Below are positions 1,446 to 62,095 of a stretch of DNA of 64,000 nt, piece after piece. The stretch spans positions 10,731,257-10,795,256 of the forward strand of contig JAHRHZ010000055.1 of assembly GCA_024137785.1 (NCBI GenBank), in the 5' to 3' direction. The stretch comes from Ginglymostoma cirratum. Taxonomy: Eukaryota. A program made the position numbers and the translations under genes. Every line of letters starts with the position of its first letter. Positions within the stretch are counted from its first letter, which is position 1. The notes under the pieces are model-generated. The model was not told the DNA's origin. It made no database searches and was given only the letters and a program-made list of their open reading frames with translations.

Positions 1446-2148
1446 ATCTACTAATGTGGTATACTGCATCCGCTGTACCCGTTGTGGCCTCCTCTACATC
1501 GGGGAAACCAAGCGGAGGCTTGGGGACCACTTTGCAGAACACTTACGCTGGGTTCACAATCAACAACTGTGCCTCCCTGTCACGAACCATTTCAACTCCC
1601 CCTCCCATTCCTCAGACGACATGTCCATCCTGGGCCTCCTGCAGTGCCACAACGATGCCACCCGAAGGCTGCAGGAACAGCAAATCATATTCAGCCTGGG
1701 AACCCTGCAGCCCAATGGCATCAATGTGGATTTCACAAGTTTCAAAATCTCCCCTCCCCCAACCGCATCCCAAAACCAGCCCAGCTCATCTCCACCTCCC
1801 TAACCTGTTTTTCCTCTCACCTCAAGCCACACCCCCATCTCCTATCTACTAACATCATCCCGCCCCCTTGACCTGTCCGTCCTCCCTGGACTGACCTATC
1901 TCCTCCCTACCCCCCTACCTACACTCACCTTTACTGGTTCCATCCCCGCCTCTTCGACTTGTCTGCCTCCTCTCCACCTATCCTCTCCTCTATCCATTCT
2001 CTATCCGCCTCCCCCTCTCTCCCTATTTATTTCAGAACCCTCTTCCCCTCCCCCATTTCTGATGAAGGGTTTAGGCCCGAAACGTCAAGTTTTCCTGCTC
2101 CTATGATGCTGCTTGACCTGCTGTGTTCATCCAGCCCCATGCTTGTTA
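1446..2148 (+). mobile_element. 5'-truncated Penelope-like element, family A: GIY-YIG endonuclease C-terminus plus pLTR
   Basis: ORF 1456-1803 VYCIRCTRCGLLYIGETKRRLGDHFAEHL...GIN has the PLE GIY-YIG signature (VY..CxxC..YIGET). It is followed by a pyrimidine-rich 3' region and a hammerhead-bearing terminus. Confidence 0.9.
2055..2090 (+). ncRNA. Minimal type-I hammerhead ribozyme motif (family A pLTR)
   Basis: CTGATGA (2059-2065), A, stem II GGGT-TTAG-GCCC, GAAAC, GTC cleavage triplet. The core is intact, with the palindromic ACGT helix III typical of PLE hammerheads. Confidence 0.8.
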
Positions 2149-3059
2149 CCAGGAAATGATGATCTCCAATAAGAGATAATCTAATCTCCACGCCTTGCCA
2201 TGCACTAGTGTTACCATCACCGAATCTCTACTGAATATCCTTGGGATTACCACTGACCAGAAATTCAACTGAACTTGCCACATAAACACAATGGCTGCAA
2301 GAGCAGGTAGGAATGCTGCAGCGATTAACTCACCTCTTGACCCCGTAGCCTAGATGGATGCAGCTCCGGCAAAACTCAAGAAGCTTGACACACTCCGGGA
2401 CAAAGCAGCCCGTTTGACTGGCACCAGGTCCACGAGCATCCACTCCCTCCACCACTGACGCTCAGTAGCAGCAGTCTGTACAATCTGCAAGATGCACTGC
2501 AGAAACTCACCAAAGATCCTGAGACAGTACCTTTCAAACCCTGAACACTTCAATGTAGAAGGGCAAGAATAGCAGATACATGGGGAACAGCACCACCTGG
2601 AAGTTCCCCTGCAAGCCACTCATGAACTTGACTTGGAAATGCACTACTATTCCTTCACAGTCACTGGGTCAAAATATTGGAATTCACTCCCTATTAGGGC
2701 ATTGTGAGTCAACCTACAGCACGTGGACATAGTAATTCCAAAGGTCAACTCACCACCACCTTCTCAGGGGCAAATACGGATGGCTAATAAATGCAGGCCA
2801 ACCAGCAATGCCCACATCCCATAAGTGAATTAAAAAATGTGCAGCAGCACCGTTGTCAACAGAGTAAGCAGCCAACAGTGCTGAAGTATTCTCATAGAAC
2901 CTAATCCAGGAACATTGAATCCCATAACTTTGACTTGTAATTTTTTTTGACATAAAGTATATTGAAACAAGCGATTAAGACATGCACATGGGACTAAAAT
3001 AGAAGATAAAATGTAAAACAAAATTAAAACATGTGGAATTTCTTGTCATGGTGGTGAAA

Positions 3060-3200
3060 TTTCATAGAATTATGGAAGGGTTACAGCACAGAAGGAAGGC
3101 ATCCATCCCATTAAACCTGTGGTAGTTTGCTGCAAAAGCAACGTAGCTAGATCCACTCCCCTGCACTTTCCCTAAGCAAACTTTTATGCTTTGACTCTTT
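3060..3200 (-). mobile_element. CR1 3' tail fragment
   Basis: catagaat...ttacagcacagaagga...ggc is the reverse complement of the CR1 3' tail seen in other copies. Confidence 0.55.
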
Positions 3201-3207
3201 TTTTGGA

Positions 3208-3286
3208 AGGTCTGCTAGGTGGTTCAATCTTTGTTGTGAGTCCTTCGCTAATATTTGTAATGGTATGTCTGGTAGGGAAACAACAG
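3208..3286 (-). mobile_element. Short diverged Penelope RT N-terminal fragment
   Basis: Its reverse complement (cctgttgtttccctaccagacataccattacaaatattagcgaaggactcacaacaaagattgaaccacctagcag) aligns to ~4543-4620 with many substitutions. Confidence 0.7.
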
Positions 3287-3289
3287 GTA

Positions 3290-3920
3290 GAGTTTAGGGA
3301 TTTTATAGTGAGAGAAACAGATGGGCATTTCTATGTCTGCAGACATGAATTCAGGATAACAATGTGTTGCCTCCATGGTGCTGGGGTTGTGGATGCCACT
3401 GTATGACTGCCACACTCACTGAAGAAAGAGAGTGAACAGCTATTTGTTACAGTCCATATTGTCATCAATAATATAGGAAGAAGGAAGAACAAAGCTCAGT
3501 TTAGAGAATTTAGGGAGTTGTCAAATAGAACATGAAAGGTAGCAAGAAAATAACATCTAGAAATACTCAGTGGCTCTGCAGCATGTTGAATGCATACACA
3601 TCTGCTAAATTCCAGCATTTTGTGTTTTTATTTAAGTTTTCCAGCATTCTCAGTATTTTGGTCAATGATTGTTCCCTCCAGATTGCTCTGGATGCCATGT
3701 CCTAGCAAGTTTAGAACTGGGAGGATACAGCGTATGAGCGTGTAATTAGAGGGAAAGGCTTCAGATTCCTGGAACATTGGGACAGGTTGCTGAGGAGGTC
3801 AGACCTGTAACCTGGATGTGTTACCCACAACAAGACAGCACCAATGCCTGTGCCAGACAGTATGCTGATGGGGAGGGTGTATACCAACTTGACAGAGAGT
3901 TAGGAACCAGAATATAATGT
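3290..3920 (+). mobile_element. Degenerate CR1 ORF1 (SGNH esterase-type) fragment, duplicated inside the inverted repeat
   Basis: gggattttatagtgagagaaacagatgggcatttc...tgtgttgcctccatggtgctggggtt is a decayed GDSIVR.TD..FC...VCCLPGA motif. A degenerate pLTR hairpin is inserted at ~3545-3665. Confidence 0.6.
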
Positions 3921-3989
3921 TTTGGCAAAGATCTGTAGCTCAGGTTGTGAATGAGGTTGTTGACTTGCTCGCCGAGCTGGCTTGTTTTT

Positions 3990-4044
3990 GTTCAGATGTT
4001 TCATCACCGTGCTAGATGACATCATCAGTAGAGCCTCCGATGAA
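3990..4044 (-). ncRNA. Hammerhead ribozyme motif, inverted copy of the family D pLTR
   Basis: Reverse complement reads CTGATGA-tgtcatc-tagcac-ggtgat-GAAAC-ATC. Confidence 0.6.
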
Positions 4045-4602
4045 GCGATGTTATTCTACACCACTTAGAATTTATACTGTCCAGTCCGTTATGGTGAGTA
4101 TGTCATTTCCGGTTTTGATCTGTATGGGTTTGTATATTGGTTCCATGCTATCCGTTTGTTGATTGAAGTATGGGTGGAGAACCATGCCTCTAGGAATTCC
4201 CGTGTGTGTCTATGTTTGGCTTGGGCTACTATGGTTACCTTGTCCCAGTTAAATTGATGACCTTCATTGTCTGAATGTACTGATATTAAGGAGAGTTCAT
4301 CCTGCCATTTTGCTGCCAGCTGACGTTAATGTATTCTGATGGCTAGTTTCCTTCCTGTCTGTCCTGTTTGTGGCAGTCGTTGCAAGGTATTTAGTAAACC
4401 ACATTTGTTCTGAATGTTGTGGGAATGGGGTCTTTAATCCTTGTAATTGGATTCTAAACCAGATCCCGCTAAACCAGAAGACAGAAACACCCCTCAGTTC
4501 TATGGGCTGCCTAAAGTACATAAACCAGACATCCCTCTCAGACCTATTGTTTCCCTACCAGACACACCATCACACAAATTGGCCAAGGACCTACAATAGA
4601 GA

Positions 4603-5295
4603 TTGAAACACCTAGTAGAGGGATCACCCCATTCTATCCACTCAACCCAAAATTTCCTTGATACCCTCAAGAACATAAAAATCAGCGACAACAAGACTAT
4701 GGTATCCTTTGACACCACAGCCTTATTCAACTCAGTCGACATCCTACTAGCCAAAGAAATAGTGGCCACATTACTAGAGGAAACAGCGACACAAACCAGT
4801 AGCTCCATCAGCAAGGACAACATACTTAAAATACTAGACCTCTGCCTCACCACACACTTCACCTTTAATGGTCCGATGTACAAGCAGATCAACAGTACAC
4901 CAATGGGGTCACCCATCTCAGGAGTCATCTCAGAAGTAGTCATGCAAAGACTAGAACACACCATTCTCCGCATTCAACCTAAACTGTGGATCCGGTACAT
5001 AGATGACACATTTGTCATTATTAAACGCAACAAATTAGAAACCTACCACCTCATCAACGGCGTATTCACAGGGATTAAATTCACAAGGGAAGAAAAAAAC
5101 AACAATCAACTTCCGTTTCTGGATGTTAAAGTCGAGCAATTAACAAACGGGGAGTTCCAAACCTCAGTGTACAGAAAAGCAATACACACCAGTCAAATCC
5201 TCAATTTCCACAACAACTACCCCAACGACAACAAACAAAGCTGCATTAGGACCGTATTTAAATGGGCCAGGATACACTGCAACACTCCAGAATGA
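4603..5295 (+). pseudogene. PLE reverse transcriptase core (remnant ORF, 230 aa)
   Basis: RT motifs as above. An in-frame stop upstream and frameshifts downstream show the polyprotein is broken. Confidence 0.85.
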
Positions 5296-5611
5296 TGCAG
5301 GGAAGAGGAAGAACACTTGTACAAGATCCTCGCTTTAAAAGAGTTATACCTGCAACTTCATCCACCGATGCCTACAAAACAGACAACAGGAGGACACAGT
5401 ATGACCTAACACACTGGCCACACCGTCCGACATCTCGAGATATCAGAACAGATGACAAGATTCCAAAGACCACTAGGAATCATGGTGGCCCAACAGCCCA
5501 CAGCCATTCTACCACAAGCACTTACAAGGATGAAAGATCCCATTCCCATAACATGCAGAATGAACGTGGTTTACAAAATACCATGCAACGACTGCCATGA
5601 ACATTACATCA

Positions 5612-6688
5612 GACAGACAGGAAGGAAACTAGCCATCAGAATACATTAACGTCAGCTGGCAGCAAAATGGCAGGATGAACTCTCCGTAATATCAGTACAT
5701 TCAGACAATGAAGGCCATCAATTTAACTGGGACAAGGTAACCATAGTAGCCCAAGCCAAACATAGACACACACGGGAATTCCTAGAGGCATGGTTCTCCA
5801 CCCATACTTCAATCAACAAACGGATAGCATGGAACCAATATACAAACCCATACAGATCAAAACCGGAAATGACATACTCACCATAACGGACTGGACAGTA
5901 TAAATTCTAAGTGGTGTAGAATAACATCGCTTCATCGGAGGCTCTACTGATGATGTCATCTAGCACGGTGACGAAACATCTGAACAAAAACAAGCCAGCT
6001 CAGCGAGCAAGTCAACAACCTCATCCACAACCTGAGCTACAGATCTTTGCCAAAACATTATACTCTGGTTCCTAACTCTCTGTCAAGTTGGTATACACCC
6101 TCCCCATCAGCATACTGTCTGGCACAGGCATTGGTGCTGTCTTGTTGTGGGTAACACATCCAGGTTACAGGTCTGACCTCCTCAGCAACCTGTCCCAATG
6201 TTCCAGGAATCTGAAGCCTTTCCCTCTAATTACACGCTCATACGCTGTATCCTCCCAGTTCTAAACTTGCTAGGACATGGCATCCAGAGCAATCTGGAGG
6301 GGACAATCATTGACCAAAATACTGAGAATGCTGGAAAACTTAAATAAAAACACAAAATGCTGGAATTTAGCAGATGTGTATGCATTCAACATGCTGCAGA
6401 GCCACTGAGTATTTCTAGATGTTATTTTCTTGCTACCTTTCATGTTCTATTTGACAACTCCCTAAATTCTCTAAACTGAGCTTTGTTCTTCCTTCTTCCT
6501 ATATTATTGATGACAATATGGACTGTAACAAATAGCTGTTTACTCTCTTTCTTCAGTGAGTGTGGCAGTCATACAGTGGCATCCACAACCCCAGCACCAT
6601 GGAGGCAACACATTGTTATCCTGAATTCATGTCTGCAGACATAGAAATGCCCATCTGTTTCCCTCACTATAAAATCCCTAAACTCTAC
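5612..6688 (+). repeat. Right arm of the 1077-bp inverted repeat: PLE 3' end plus ~640 bp of flank
   Basis: See left arm. The CR1-ORF1-like flank appears to continue past 6688 on this side only. Confidence 0.95.
5931..5985 (+). ncRNA. Hammerhead ribozyme motif in the family D pLTR
   Basis: CTGATGA 5947-5953, stem II gtcatc/ggtgac, GAAAC 5973-5977, triplet ATC. Helix I is short and irregular. Confidence 0.65.
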
Positions 6689-6917
6689 TGTGCTCCCCAT
6701 CCTCTTGCCTTAGATTTGGCTCTGGCTGCACTCCCTTGATTAACCATTATGTTTACTCATATTCAGAGGTGAATACTGATTTGTGAATGAGCACTCCTTC
6801 ACCCCCCGCCTGACCCTCCTTTGTGGTCTGAAAGTCACCTGTCCACTCTCTCCTGCAACCCATTAGGCTGTGGGGTGAAGACCCCTAGAAATGGGGTGTC
6901 ATGTCACATTGCAACTC

Positions 6918-7247
6918 ACCAGCACAGTGGCTGAGTGGTCAGTACTGCTGCCTCACAGAACCAGGTGACTGTCTGTGTGGAGTTTGCACATTCACCCCAT
7001 GTCTGCATGAGCTTTTCCAGGTGCTCTGGTTTCCTTCCACAGTCCAACAAAGTTAGGTGGATTGGCCATGCTAAATTGTCCATAGTATCCAGGGATGTAA
7101 AGGCTAGGTGGATTAGCCATGGGATATGTAGGGTTATGGAGATAGGATAAGGGGGTGGATTTGGGTGGGATGATCTTCAAATGGTCAGTGTAGACTTCAT
7201 GGGTCAAATGGTGTGCTTCCACACTGCAGGGATTTTATGATTCTATC
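6918..7247 (+). mobile_element. HE1-like V-SINE (tRNA-derived head, CR1-type tail)
   Basis: gcacagtggctgagtggtcagtactgctgcctcacag head; tgtgtggagtttgcacatt and gttaggtggattggccatgctaaattg central domain; gggattttatgattct tail. Confidence 0.8.
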
Positions 7248-8354
7248 TCTTGTGCTTCTGTGCCAAGAGCAGACAATGAATGCTTATAGTTGCACCTTTA
7301 TTATTACCACAAAGCTGAGCAATTCATGCCGCCACCTTTAAATGTGCAAATAAAGTGTTATTTTCAAAACAAGGGCATGCAGGGCCTGTATGTATTGGAA
7401 GAAAACAAATTAAGATGGATCTCACTGTAAAATTAGAACAAAATTTGAACACAGATAAGAAGGGGAAAGTGGGTGCTTGGACCCATCGAACTTTTCCTTT
7501 CATTGCAAAGACAACATTTTCTGTATTTTTGTTTGGTTCCCATGTACTATAATGGAAAAGGACTATTTTAAAGCCAAGGACAGTAAATAAATTGCTGCAC
7601 TTTTAAAAACAAATCACTGAAACTCATTCTGCTTGATGTTTACACTGCTGCTTTTTTCCAGGGAAAGGGTTTATGGGTGGTATGGCACCAGGGTGCAAGT
7701 GCAGAGTGAGATTTGACCAGCAAAAAGTGGCTGATTGCTTTGTGTAATTGTGACCAGTCAAGGATGTCAAAGCTCATTAGCCTGATGCTGAGTCTGACTG
7801 ATTCCTGAGCAGCTGAACAGTTTGCACATGTGCACAATATTGGGGGAAGTCTTCAGACTGAAAGAAGGGCAGGTTGTGTGTGTCTCTGATTATCTGCAAG
7901 AAAAATATCCAAAAGTGAAGAAAGCCAGTTGTTTTCTCCCACCAGTTGCTGTAAGTAGCTAGACTACCAATTACCCTGTGCTTCCTTGAAGAGGTGAAAG
8001 ACCTAGAGAAAGGAGATTGAAGAACAAAAAATCCTGGCAAGCCAAAAATAAACATCTCAGTGAGCCTGTTGATAATGCTACTATTTCTTGAACCACATTT
8101 CCCAATTCTTACTTCCTCTCCGCTCTTAGAACTATTGGTTTTGGTTGTCTGTGCCTTTTCTGTATATGTATGTACTCTGCTATCCCTATAAAAAGCCACC
8201 TGATTCCTACAGCCAGGCAATGACAGCCCTCAACATAGCTGCTGCTTGCCTTTTCTGCTGGTGCCTCACAGGCAGTTCCTGTTAATTGAGAACATTCAGC
8301 ATAAGTTTATCTCCTGACCTATAAGGCTATCCGAATTCTAAATAAAAACCTTGA

Positions 8355-26345: not shown

Positions 26346-26369
26346 CAGGAAAACGGAGTTAAAGCCACA

Positions 26370-26577
26370 AGGTGTAGAGCTGGATGAACACAGCAGGCCA
26401 AGCAGCATCAGAGGAGCAGAAAAGCTGACGTTTCGAGTCTGGACCCTTCTTCTGAAGAAGGGTCCAGACCCGAAATGTCAGCTTTTCTGTTCCTCTGATG
26501 CTGCCTGGCTTGCTGTATTCATCCAGCTGTACGCCTTGTTATCTCAGATTCTCCAGCATCGGCAGTTCCTACTATCT
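26370..26577. mobile_element. Family A fold-back pLTR/hammerhead mini-element with a 16-bp TSD
   Basis: TSD cggagttaaagccaca at 26354-26369 and 26578-26593. Near-perfect palindrome centred on 26453. Plus-strand core CTGAAGA-A-GGGTC-CA-GACCC-GAAAT-GTC. Confidence 0.92.
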
Positions 26578-35152: not shown

Positions 35153-35299
35153 NNNNNNNNNNNNNNNNNNNNNNNNNNNNNNNNNNNNNNNNNNNNNNNN
35201 NNNNNNNNNNNNNNNNNNNNNNNNNNNNNNNNNNNNNNNNNNNNNNNNNNNNNNNNNNNNNNNNNNNNNNNNNNNNNNNNNNNNNNNNNNNNNNNNNNN
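35153..35299. other. Assembly gap (147 N)
   Basis: Run of N. Confidence 1.
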
Positions 35300-42183: not shown

Positions 42184-42380
42184 GCCATGATACGGAGGTG
42201 CCAGAGTTGGACTGGGGCGGACCAAGTCAAAAATCACATGACACCAGGTTATAGTCCAACAGGTTTACTTGAAGACATAAGCTTTCGGACTCTCACTCCT
42301 TCTTTGGGTGTCAAACTTGAAGAAGGAGCAAGACTCCGAAAACTTGCGTCTTCAAATAAACCTGTTGGACAATAACCTGA
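42184..42380. mobile_element. Family C fold-back pLTR/hammerhead mini-element with TSD
   Basis: TSD gtcaatggag at 42174-42183 and 42382-42391. Arms caggttatagtccaacaggttta...gctttcgga..ctccttc and gaaggagcaagactccgaaaac...taaacctgttggacaataacctg are inverted. Cores are degenerate. Confidence 0.82.
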
Positions 42381-43069
42381 AGTCAATGGAGATCAGGACT
42401 GAAGGGAACCTACTTTGGATGAAGTCAGAATTTGCACAAAAGGAAACTGATTAATGCTGTCGGAGGTTCCCATTCACAATACCCCGAAATGAAGCAGCCC
42501 ATCTCTGCTTGCAATAAGTCCCTGACAACATCTATACTTGGGCTGCTCAGTGACAAGTACCATTTGCACCGTAGACGTGTCAAAAATGAACATCTGCAGC
42601 AAGTGAGCAGAACCATATCCCTTTGATAATGTGATTGCCATCACTATCAAATTTAACACCATTGACCAGAATCCACACTGGGCCATTCACACAAATACCA
42701 TACCTCTCATCGCAGATTAGGAACAAAGTATTGTATTGCCAGTGTCTTATCACTTGGTTCCTGGTAGAGGTAGACAATCAAGTAAAATGTAGACCACACT
42801 CCCCAGAAAATCATCAGAAAAGCTGGTGGTAAGTATGTGATTATATATTATTATTCTCGCGTGAGGAATTAGAGTGTAATAACAACCCTTGTTAGTTTTG
42901 TGTGTTGGCATATGATCAGATAAAAGCTATCCCAAGCTACCTATTATCTATTTGCATGTAGGCTCACTTTCCTGACATTAAAGATCAAGCTTTATAATCA
43001 CCGTGTCAGTGATTGACAAAGTCAATCTCACCCCTTTAGATCAGGCAAACAAAATTTGAGAGCAGGGGA

Positions 43070-50537: not shown

Positions 50538-50937
50538 NNNNNNNNNNNNNNNNNNNNNNNNNNNNNNNNNNNNNNNNNNNNNNNNNNNNNNNNNNNNNNN
50601 NNNNNNNNNNNNNNNNNNNNNNNNNNNNNNNNNNNNNNNNNNNNNNNNNNNNNNNNNNNNNNNNNNNNNNNNNNNNNNNNNNNNNNNNNNNNNNNNNNNN
50701 NNNNNNNNNNNNNNNNNNNNNNNNNNNNNNNNNNNNNNNNNNNNNNNNNNNNNNNNNNNNNNNNNNNNNNNNNNNNNNNNNNNNNNNNNNNNNNNNNNNN
50801 NNNNNNNNNNNNNNNNNNNNNNNNNNNNNNNNNNNNNNNNNNNNNNNNNNNNNNNNNNNNNNNNNNNNNNNNNNNNNNNNNNNNNNNNNNNNNNNNNNNN
50901 NNNNNNNNNNNNNNNNNNNNNNNNNNNNNNNNNNNNN
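50538..50937. other. Assembly gap (400 N)
   Basis: Run of N. Confidence 1.
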
Positions 50938-55487: not shown

Positions 55488-55532
55488 CATTTTAAAATTA
55501 CTTATTTATTGCCTGACCAAATTATGCACGAA

Positions 55533-55767
55533 CAAAAACAGAAGCTGCTGGTAAAGCTCAGCAGGTCTGACAGCATCTGTGAAGAAAAAAATCAGAGTTA
55601 ATGTTTCAGGTCTGGTGACCCTTCCTCAGAACTGTTCTGAGGAAGGGTCACAGGACCCGCAATGTTAACTCTGATTTTCTCTTCACAGATACTGCCAGAC
55701 CCACTGAGCTTTACCAGCAACTTCTGTCTTTGTTCCTGATGTACAGCATCCACAGTTCTTTTGGTTT
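55533..55767. mobile_element. Family B fold-back double-hammerhead mini-element with a 14-bp TSD
   Basis: TSD aaattatgca(c/t)gaa at 55519-55532 and 55768-55781. Palindrome centred on 55633. CTGAGGA-A-GGGTC-N4-GACCY on both strands. Confidence 0.92.
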
Positions 55768-62008: not shown

Positions 62009-62095
62009 TAACAAGCATGGGGCTGGATGAACACAGCAGGTCAAGCAGCATCATAGGAGCAGGAAAACTTGACGTTTCGGGCCTAAACCCTTCAT
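62009..62095 (-). mobile_element. 87-bp family A pLTR fragment, identical to 2062-2148
   Basis: Exact reverse complement of 2062-2148; truncated inside the CTGATGA box. Confidence 0.92.

Follow-up and report, generated by a model that had tools for sequence, protein, structure and literature searches.

When an element and part of its flanking DNA stand beside an inverted copy of themselves at 99% identity, is that copy young, and was it the element that made it? This question is raised by a 64,000-nt stretch of the genome of the shark Ginglymostoma cirratum (assembly GCA_024137785.1, contig JAHRHZ010000055.1, positions 10,731,257 to 10,795,256 of the forward strand; hereafter the window), in which a decayed Penelope-like element (PLE) is caught up in an inverted repeat: positions 3287–4363 are the reverse complement of 5612–6688, the two arms of 1077 nt aligning gap-free at 9 substitutions around a spacer of 1248 nt. 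According to self-alignment, the right arm (5612–6688, + strand) consists of the 3’ end of the main PLE (5612–6060) and its flank (6061–6688). The left arm (3287–4363, − strand), probably the derived copy, consists of the PLE endonuclease end, pseudo-long terminal repeat (pLTR) and tail (3915–4363) and of the copied flank (3287–3914). Each arm thus comprises 449 bp of PLE and 628 bp of flank, with PLE homology stopping at 6060/3915; four of the nine differences lie in the flank part and five in the PLE part. Transitions make up eight of the nine (p 0.001 versus a random expectation of one-third), and stops and one frameshift are common to both arms as judged by translation. The repeat is the longest among 73 inverted pairs in the window, the runner-up measuring 175 nt at 79% identity. 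An initial annotation, made by eye, had given arm coordinates, arm and spacer lengths and about 9 substitutions that all turned out exact on computation; its division of each arm into ~445 bp of PLE and ~640 bp of other DNA was close to the measured one, and it rightly held that host (non-PLE) DNA had been duplicated in inverted orientation beside the element, as 628 bp of flank are present in both arms. No gene or function was recognised for the repeat, and no host gene was found among the open reading frames (ORFs) of the window, whose lists contain stop-to-stop frames only and leave room for an intron. Our overall account, which we consider probable, is that the inverted duplication beside this Poseidon-type PLE is old and that repeated gene conversion from arm to arm has kept its two halves nearly identical.

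The age of the repeat can be judged by comparison with a relative. Read-derived Logan contigs were aligned to positions 2600–5611, a stretch holding one arm, for 4 of 24 listed runs: X1, X4 and X5, three samples of one species (organism A), and X15 (organism B), which had no cover over 3206–3609 and is uninformative on the junction. Organism A shares 0.19 of the window’s words, corresponding to a relative about 5% diverged. The left outer junction at 3287 is bridged in all three samples of organism A, in X1 and X4 by a 560-bp contig (2805–3364) with no gaps and 28 differences, and in X5 by two overlapping contigs (2805–3283 and 3256–3364). Two contigs lie over position 3291 in all three runs, and bin depths put the second one at 3287–3288 to 3364 (predicted depths of 33.7, 32.3 and 22.1 versus 33.8, 32.3 and 22.1 observed). 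We take this second contig for the right-arm orthologue, through whose start, and not directly, the right outer junction of organism A is seen. A contig at single-copy depth crosses a deletion of 7 bp at 4363/4364 without gaps in X1, X4 and X5, and is probably the orthologue of the window’s sequence, the alternative being a paralogue with the same deletion. Since the same boundary and two copies are present there, the inverted duplication is older than the split of species now ~5% diverged. To read the 99% identity as a sign of recent copying is not supported, as the structure predates the split and the arms have been homogenised since.

Homogenisation becomes apparent when divergence within and between species is compared. 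Over 3335–3944 (610 bp), the window and organism A differ at 26–27 sites, whereas the window arms differ from one another at 3. Without exchange between arms, those of organism A would be expected to lie ~51 differences apart over the 610 bp (at least 27), and the depth ratio of merged to separate contigs should be 0.54–0.62, with an upper bound of 0.67. Here, a single contig covers the 610 bp at depths of 23.8 (X1), 22.7 (X4) and 18.2 (X5), set against separate-contig depths of 14.8 + 14.0, 10.7 + 16.9 and 9 + 6.5, respectively. The resulting ratios of 0.83, 0.82 and 1.17 (0.81 for X5 on another baseline) fit about 8 or fewer differences between the arms of organism A (~1.3%, an indirect figure). 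At all nine listed sites of the flank part that differ from organism A, both window arms share the same letter. Polarised by homologues of the flank protein, three of the nine are derived in the window and in both its arms (3291, with V in 7 of 8 homologues; 3483, with K in 6 of 9 and R in none; 3495, with V or I in 9 of 9), two are apparently derived in organism A (3371 and 3439) and four could not be polarised. At site 3291, 5 bp from the boundary, both resolved contigs carry the other letter in all three runs. Between species, the arm diverges as much as the flank contig (27/610, 4.4%, versus 28/560, 5.0%; p 0.68), so that the likeness of the arms is not a matter of sequence conservation. 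Inward, the 7-bp deletion is the precise point where 99% identity gives way to 85% (9/1077 versus 14/90 differences, p 5e-11); next to it, the left copy retains the ancestral base while the right copy has a derived one, as judged by G in the related protein P0004. Other, short fold-back pairs of the window reach no more than 80–90% identity. Arms that are alike within a species and diverged between species indicate concerted evolution, most likely by arm-to-arm gene conversion, and that the repeat is old and homogenised we regard as very likely. Because the arms appear to have been homogenised, their identity neither dates the event nor shows that the PLE made it. The shared stops and frameshift were also considered as proof that duplication followed decay of the element, a use we rejected as conversion spreads such changes.

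The element at the centre of the repeat is a 5’-truncated, decayed PLE at 4462–6060 (+ strand), in which a reverse transcriptase (RT) is followed by a GIY-YIG-type endonuclease region, pLTR and tail; it carries stops at 4597, 5293 and 5647 plus frameshifts. As had been annotated, the RT sits in the spacer, where it matches RVT_1 in Pfam (E 1.9e-7), with 188 relatives among 943 candidates. The best single-domain matches, which carry the same precomputed Pfam set, are 57–62% identical, and shark PLE-type proteins (P0002–P0004; 60–62% identical) tile the RT and endonuclease regions in tblastn. The broken endonuclease pieces themselves gave no GIY-YIG match in Pfam; they are collinear with the C-terminal part of P0003, P0004 and P0007, the last of which matches GIY-YIG at E 1.8e-4, just under the cut-off. 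Read from such homology, the predicted order is RT, then C-terminal GIY-YIG-type endonuclease, an order that excludes Naiad, and no Cys-rich linker is apparent in the translation. On domain order and protein similarity, the element is probably of the Penelope/Poseidon type. A motif scan located a hammerhead-like core with a stem II of 6 bp in the pLTR (5947–5980, + strand; mirror at 3995–4028, − strand). Rfam returned no hammerhead over 2500–7500, only one chance-level match (E 3.5), and the core folded no better than shuffles (z −0.83 and 0.16). The stretch 3915–4028 weakly matches the N-terminus of P0002 (E 0.035); the tail may thus run into the ORF start.

Inward of the left arm and separated from it by the 7-bp deletion lies an unhomogenised inner remnant of the left copy (4364–4449, − strand; 13 differences in 86 nt versus 5519–5604). 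It abuts the head-to-head joint of the two 5’-truncated copies (4450–4478), where a 10-mer is duplicated at 4454–4463 and 4469–4478, possibly the kind of duplication left by end-joining. This layout, with an inverted 5’-truncated copy facing the main one, is the usual one for PLE insertions (PMC8557442). A contig of X4 fits 4309–4444 and then continues with 93 unlike letters; the joint may differ in organism A, and its centre may have been deleted in the window lineage.

The flank that received the PLE is a decayed ORF1 of CR1 type and of the SGNH/GDSL esterase-like kind (6061–6709, − strand; phmmer hits P0121–P0131, tblastn), broken by a short repeat at 6315–6365. Ten of the 11 protein matches are CR1-type ORF1 esterase proteins, P0123 being unrelated, and Lipase_GDSL_2 is present in 6 of 8 scanned homologues. 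Among 9 longer relatives, 8 have an RT and 5 a listed esterase, and endonuclease domains were found as well. Judged by these homologues, the flank is what remains of an esterase-type ORF1 from a CR1-like long interspersed nuclear element (LINE), CR1 and L2 not being told apart; the name CR1 is our presumption. The initial annotation had recognised old CR1-ORF1-like DNA here, in agreement with the esterase homologues and their longer relatives bearing RT and endonuclease. A metagenome scan for CR1 DNA yielded one distant locus among 98 candidates (27% identity), which was not used. Just outside the right arm, 6686–6720 aligns weakly to a CR1 linker of P0128 that normally lies ~10 codons further upstream, as if a little sequence had been deleted close to the right outer end. 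On the left side, a motif at 3062–3070 (− strand; 5 matches in the window versus 0.9 expected) presumably represents a typical CR1 3’ end. This presumed CR1-type 3’ end (3062–3210) has the same orientation as the right ORF1 relic; if both belong to one element, ~3 kb of ORF2 were lost at the locus.

How the flank came to be copied has to be read from the outer junctions. A 78-bp piece of PLE RT (3211–3288, − strand; 13 differences, 83% identity versus 4542–4619) in left-copy orientation meets the left arm at a 2-bp GT microhomology (3287–3288). This piece, the inner remnant and the duplicated 10-mer had all gone unnoticed in the initial annotation. At the left outer end, the RT piece and the CR1 relic are both cut at one point, which marks this end as a rearrangement junction; the right outer end shows no recognisable new element. 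The cut elements on the left and the lack of a new one on the right make the left arm the more likely derived copy, as the initial annotation had proposed. Neither a target-site duplication nor a shared 6-mer was detected at the outer ends in three comparisons; old age could have erased a short target-site duplication. The arms do not end at the pLTR and tail, as in a canonical PLE insertion, which is framed by target DNA and often by a target-site duplication, but run 628 bp past the tail. Nor does the locus bear the signature of retrotransposon 3’ transduction, as the flank copy ends in the RT piece without poly(A) or duplication. Over its 78 bp, the RT piece departs from organism A at 10 listed sites, compared with 18 across the remaining 482 bp of the contig (p 0.0025), and organism A agrees with the main copy of the window at 7 of these 10; either mutation was raised beside the junction in the window lineage, or the piece was converted in organism A.

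We envisage the following history. The PLE inserted into an older CR1-type element, head-to-head with an inverted 5’-truncated copy, as its present position and layout show. A break in the left copy may then have been repaired by invasion of the right copy, with synthesis proceeding through the pLTR and 628 bp of host flank until the left end was rejoined at the 2-bp microhomology inside the RT piece, that is, by one-sided invasion or template switching and subsequent end-joining. The comparison with organism A places the duplication before the split. Thereafter, to judge from the within- versus between-species pattern, new mutations would have passed from arm to arm, as near as 5 bp to the outer boundary and, inward, as far as the 7-bp deletion, which would act as a barrier. 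Intrachromatid gene conversion between close inverted arms, as in palindromes of the Y chromosome (PMC3723533), is the simplest means of maintenance, with no function needed. The left copy may once have been longer and partly tandem, with the 78-bp RT piece as its remainder; the orientation and similar age of the piece would then be accounted for. Given an old, homogenised repeat, we lean towards such a DNA-repair origin. Of the two origins considered in the initial annotation, DNA repair or template switching fits better and reverse transcription of a read-through RNA is disfavoured, neither being proven. The rates involved are undemanding: assuming 7e-10 mutations per site per generation as determined for a different species, the epaulette shark (PMC10587355), an arm difference would last roughly 6e6 generations, each lineage would span about 3e7 generations, and the erasure rate needed would be only ~1.7e-7 per site per generation, all rough estimates.

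Several points weigh against this account. The site-level comparison draws on 40 of 212 difference rows and on 32 pieces, and the comparison included no reads of the window’s own species. Identity, orientation and distance of the second contig over the junction are deduced from depth. Simplified contig graphs can pop bubbles, and the merged contig accordingly bounds, and does not measure, the divergence between the arms of organism A. Even at 27 differences, a single contig still arose in 46% of simulations, and it is for this reason that the depth ratio has to carry the merged-contig argument. The origin step is drawn from junction anatomy alone. The score for CR1 continuation past the outer ends, calculated at the protein level with 13 upstream linkers, was reached by 47 of 300 shuffles on the right and 133 of 300 on the left, so that the continuation on the right alone suggested in the initial annotation is no more than a possibility.

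The best-surviving alternative likewise has an old and homogenised repeat; it differs in that the flank was first copied by the PLE’s own RT from read-through RNA with a template jump, 78 nt of RT and then 1170 nt from the flank inward being inserted beside the source. Both left pieces are antisense to the main copy, the sole polarity that a sense-RNA template gives, yet this polarity is worth only a factor of ~2. Both are also 15–17% diverged from the main copy, in line with an old event that may date from the time of family activity. For PLEs, reports describe host DNA captured in the interval from ORF to pLTR and host genes transported between pLTRs, self-priming of read-through transcripts has been proposed (PMC3846280), and the Poseidon protein has nicking and extension activity on both strands (PMC11167929). 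In vitro, however, synthesis by the Poseidon RT begins mostly at sites within the tail, even when further 3’ sequence is provided, and priming from that added sequence yielded only a weak band (PMC11167929). The scenario further requires that priming took place off-site, that there was a jump and that the product was inserted precisely at the 5’ end of its own source, and the outer ends show no target-site duplication or shared 6-mer as a trace of it. We therefore consider this RNA route unlikely.

Much less probable still is that selection on an RNA hairpin in a host transcript (a double-stranded RNA, editing or back-splicing substrate) kept the arms complementary. A 1.08-kb stem would presumably form if the region were transcribed, but ~24 compensatory pairs in 610 bp would have had to arise at the neutral rate of divergence, for which conversion is the simpler explanation; the stop-to-stop ORFs offer no host gene, an intronic position notwithstanding. 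A recent single duplication or conversion, at under 1% divergence and with no ongoing homogenisation, would account for nine differences without indels and for the common stops and frameshift; it is highly improbable, as the junction and two copies in the ~5% diverged relative and the window-derived changes on both arms would call for two independent events at the same breakpoint. An assembly artefact, with one haplotype placed twice or the arms made alike by the assembler, might be suspected from two gaps elsewhere in the window (147 N at 35153–35299; 400 N at 50538–50937, the latter beside a C-rich repeat), from the trouble that inverted PLE structures are known to cause in assemblies (PMC8557442) and from the missing same-species reads, yet it is just as improbable, given that read-derived contigs from another species independently show the junction and the depth of two copies, that transitions are in excess and that ancestral states occur on both arms. 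The haplotype error that the initial annotation had wanted checked is thus very unlikely, the left junction and two copies having been recovered in contigs of three samples of a relative.

Preferring the old duplication kept alike by conversion, we see its main consequence in the fact that a 99% identical repeat need not be young, which matters wherever PLE insertions or small duplications are dated by arm identity. Homogenisation itself is a known process; new is the small, gene-free, PLE-seeded setting. Arm-to-arm homogenisation has been studied best in the large, gene-bearing palindromes of sex chromosomes; the locus suggests that it can also hold junk arms of 1 kb together under slow mutation. 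A homogenised arm beside an unconverted remnant, the two split by a 7-bp deletion, moreover provides a built-in control for conversion tract ends and indel barriers. One might go further and conjecture that in slow-mutating shark genomes the inverted layout of PLEs routinely seeds kilobase-scale palindromes that grow outward into host DNA, possibly by PLE RT copying read-through RNA beside its source, and that conversion maintains for tens of millions of generations. We regard this generalisation as doubtful; if true, PLEs would be a general source of gene-free palindromes, and the identity of inverted pLTRs would be a misleading clock.

Other PLE remains are found in the window. A second, distant PLE relic lies at 1441–2150, with a GIY-YIG match (E 2.9e-4) and a hammerhead-like core at 2059. 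Within it, 87 nt at 2062–2148 (+ strand) are 100% identical to 62009–62095 (− strand), in inverted orientation and 60 kb apart, while a further six members of this second pLTR family with matches of at least 72 nt are 82–93% alike; long-range conversion or local copying is possible. Fold-back pairs occur at 26367–26539 (90% identity, 1-nt spacer), 55527–55738 (85%) and 42239–42385 (80%). Hammerhead-like cores are present in the first two of these, which resemble pLTRs of other PLE families arranged head-to-head.

Titles and the openings of abstracts yielded no description of an inverted PLE arm that reaches into host flank or is kept alike across species, in a search with thin coverage of subscription journals and older PLE reviews. 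Several known systems nevertheless share single features with the locus. Canonical PLE insertions likewise show head-to-head truncated copies and RT followed by endonuclease; their pLTR with hammerhead motif and their tail of 30–40 bp running into the ORF start are features that the shark element may share (PMC8557442, PMC3846280). In the shark, by contrast, the inverted arm takes in 628 bp of host DNA beyond the tail and stops in an RT piece, the outer ends lack a recognisable target-site duplication, and arm identity would reflect later conversion instead of insertion age. In the Penelope captures of Adineta vaga, non-PLE DNA also joins a PLE structure, part of one insert being inverted upstream of the 5’ pLTR; there, the captured DNA lies between pLTRs or in the ORF and moves with target-site duplication, whereas the shark flank lies outside the pLTR and stays at its locus (PMC3846280). 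Extension of the terminal inverted repeats of Galileo in Drosophila mojavensis has been proposed to involve repair copying past the repeat end on the partner arm, much as we suggest here; Galileo, however, is a DNA transposon recruiting internal sequence, while the repeat of the shark retroelement grows outward into host flank (PMC3573991). Non-allelic gene conversion of LTRs provides a precedent for retroelement repeats of 0.3–1.6 kb exchanging sequence and thereby distorting identity dating, although LTRs are direct repeats made at insertion, with donors often elsewhere in the genome (PMC4921805). Larger inverted repeats have been reported to undergo recurrent inversions between them (PMC3961182). 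The closest parallel in evolutionary behaviour is with sex-chromosome palindromes such as P6 of the human Y, which also have inverted arms and a spacer, boundaries common to species, about twofold read depth in a relative and arms closer within than between species; shared boundaries and doubled depth were used there in the same way as here (PMC3723533). The scale is another: arms of 1.1 kb versus ~100 kb, 99.2% versus >99.9% alike, in a repeat of dead retroelements that is gene-free so far as found. Unlike in P6, divergence of the shark arm between species is no lower than that of its flank (PMC3723533).

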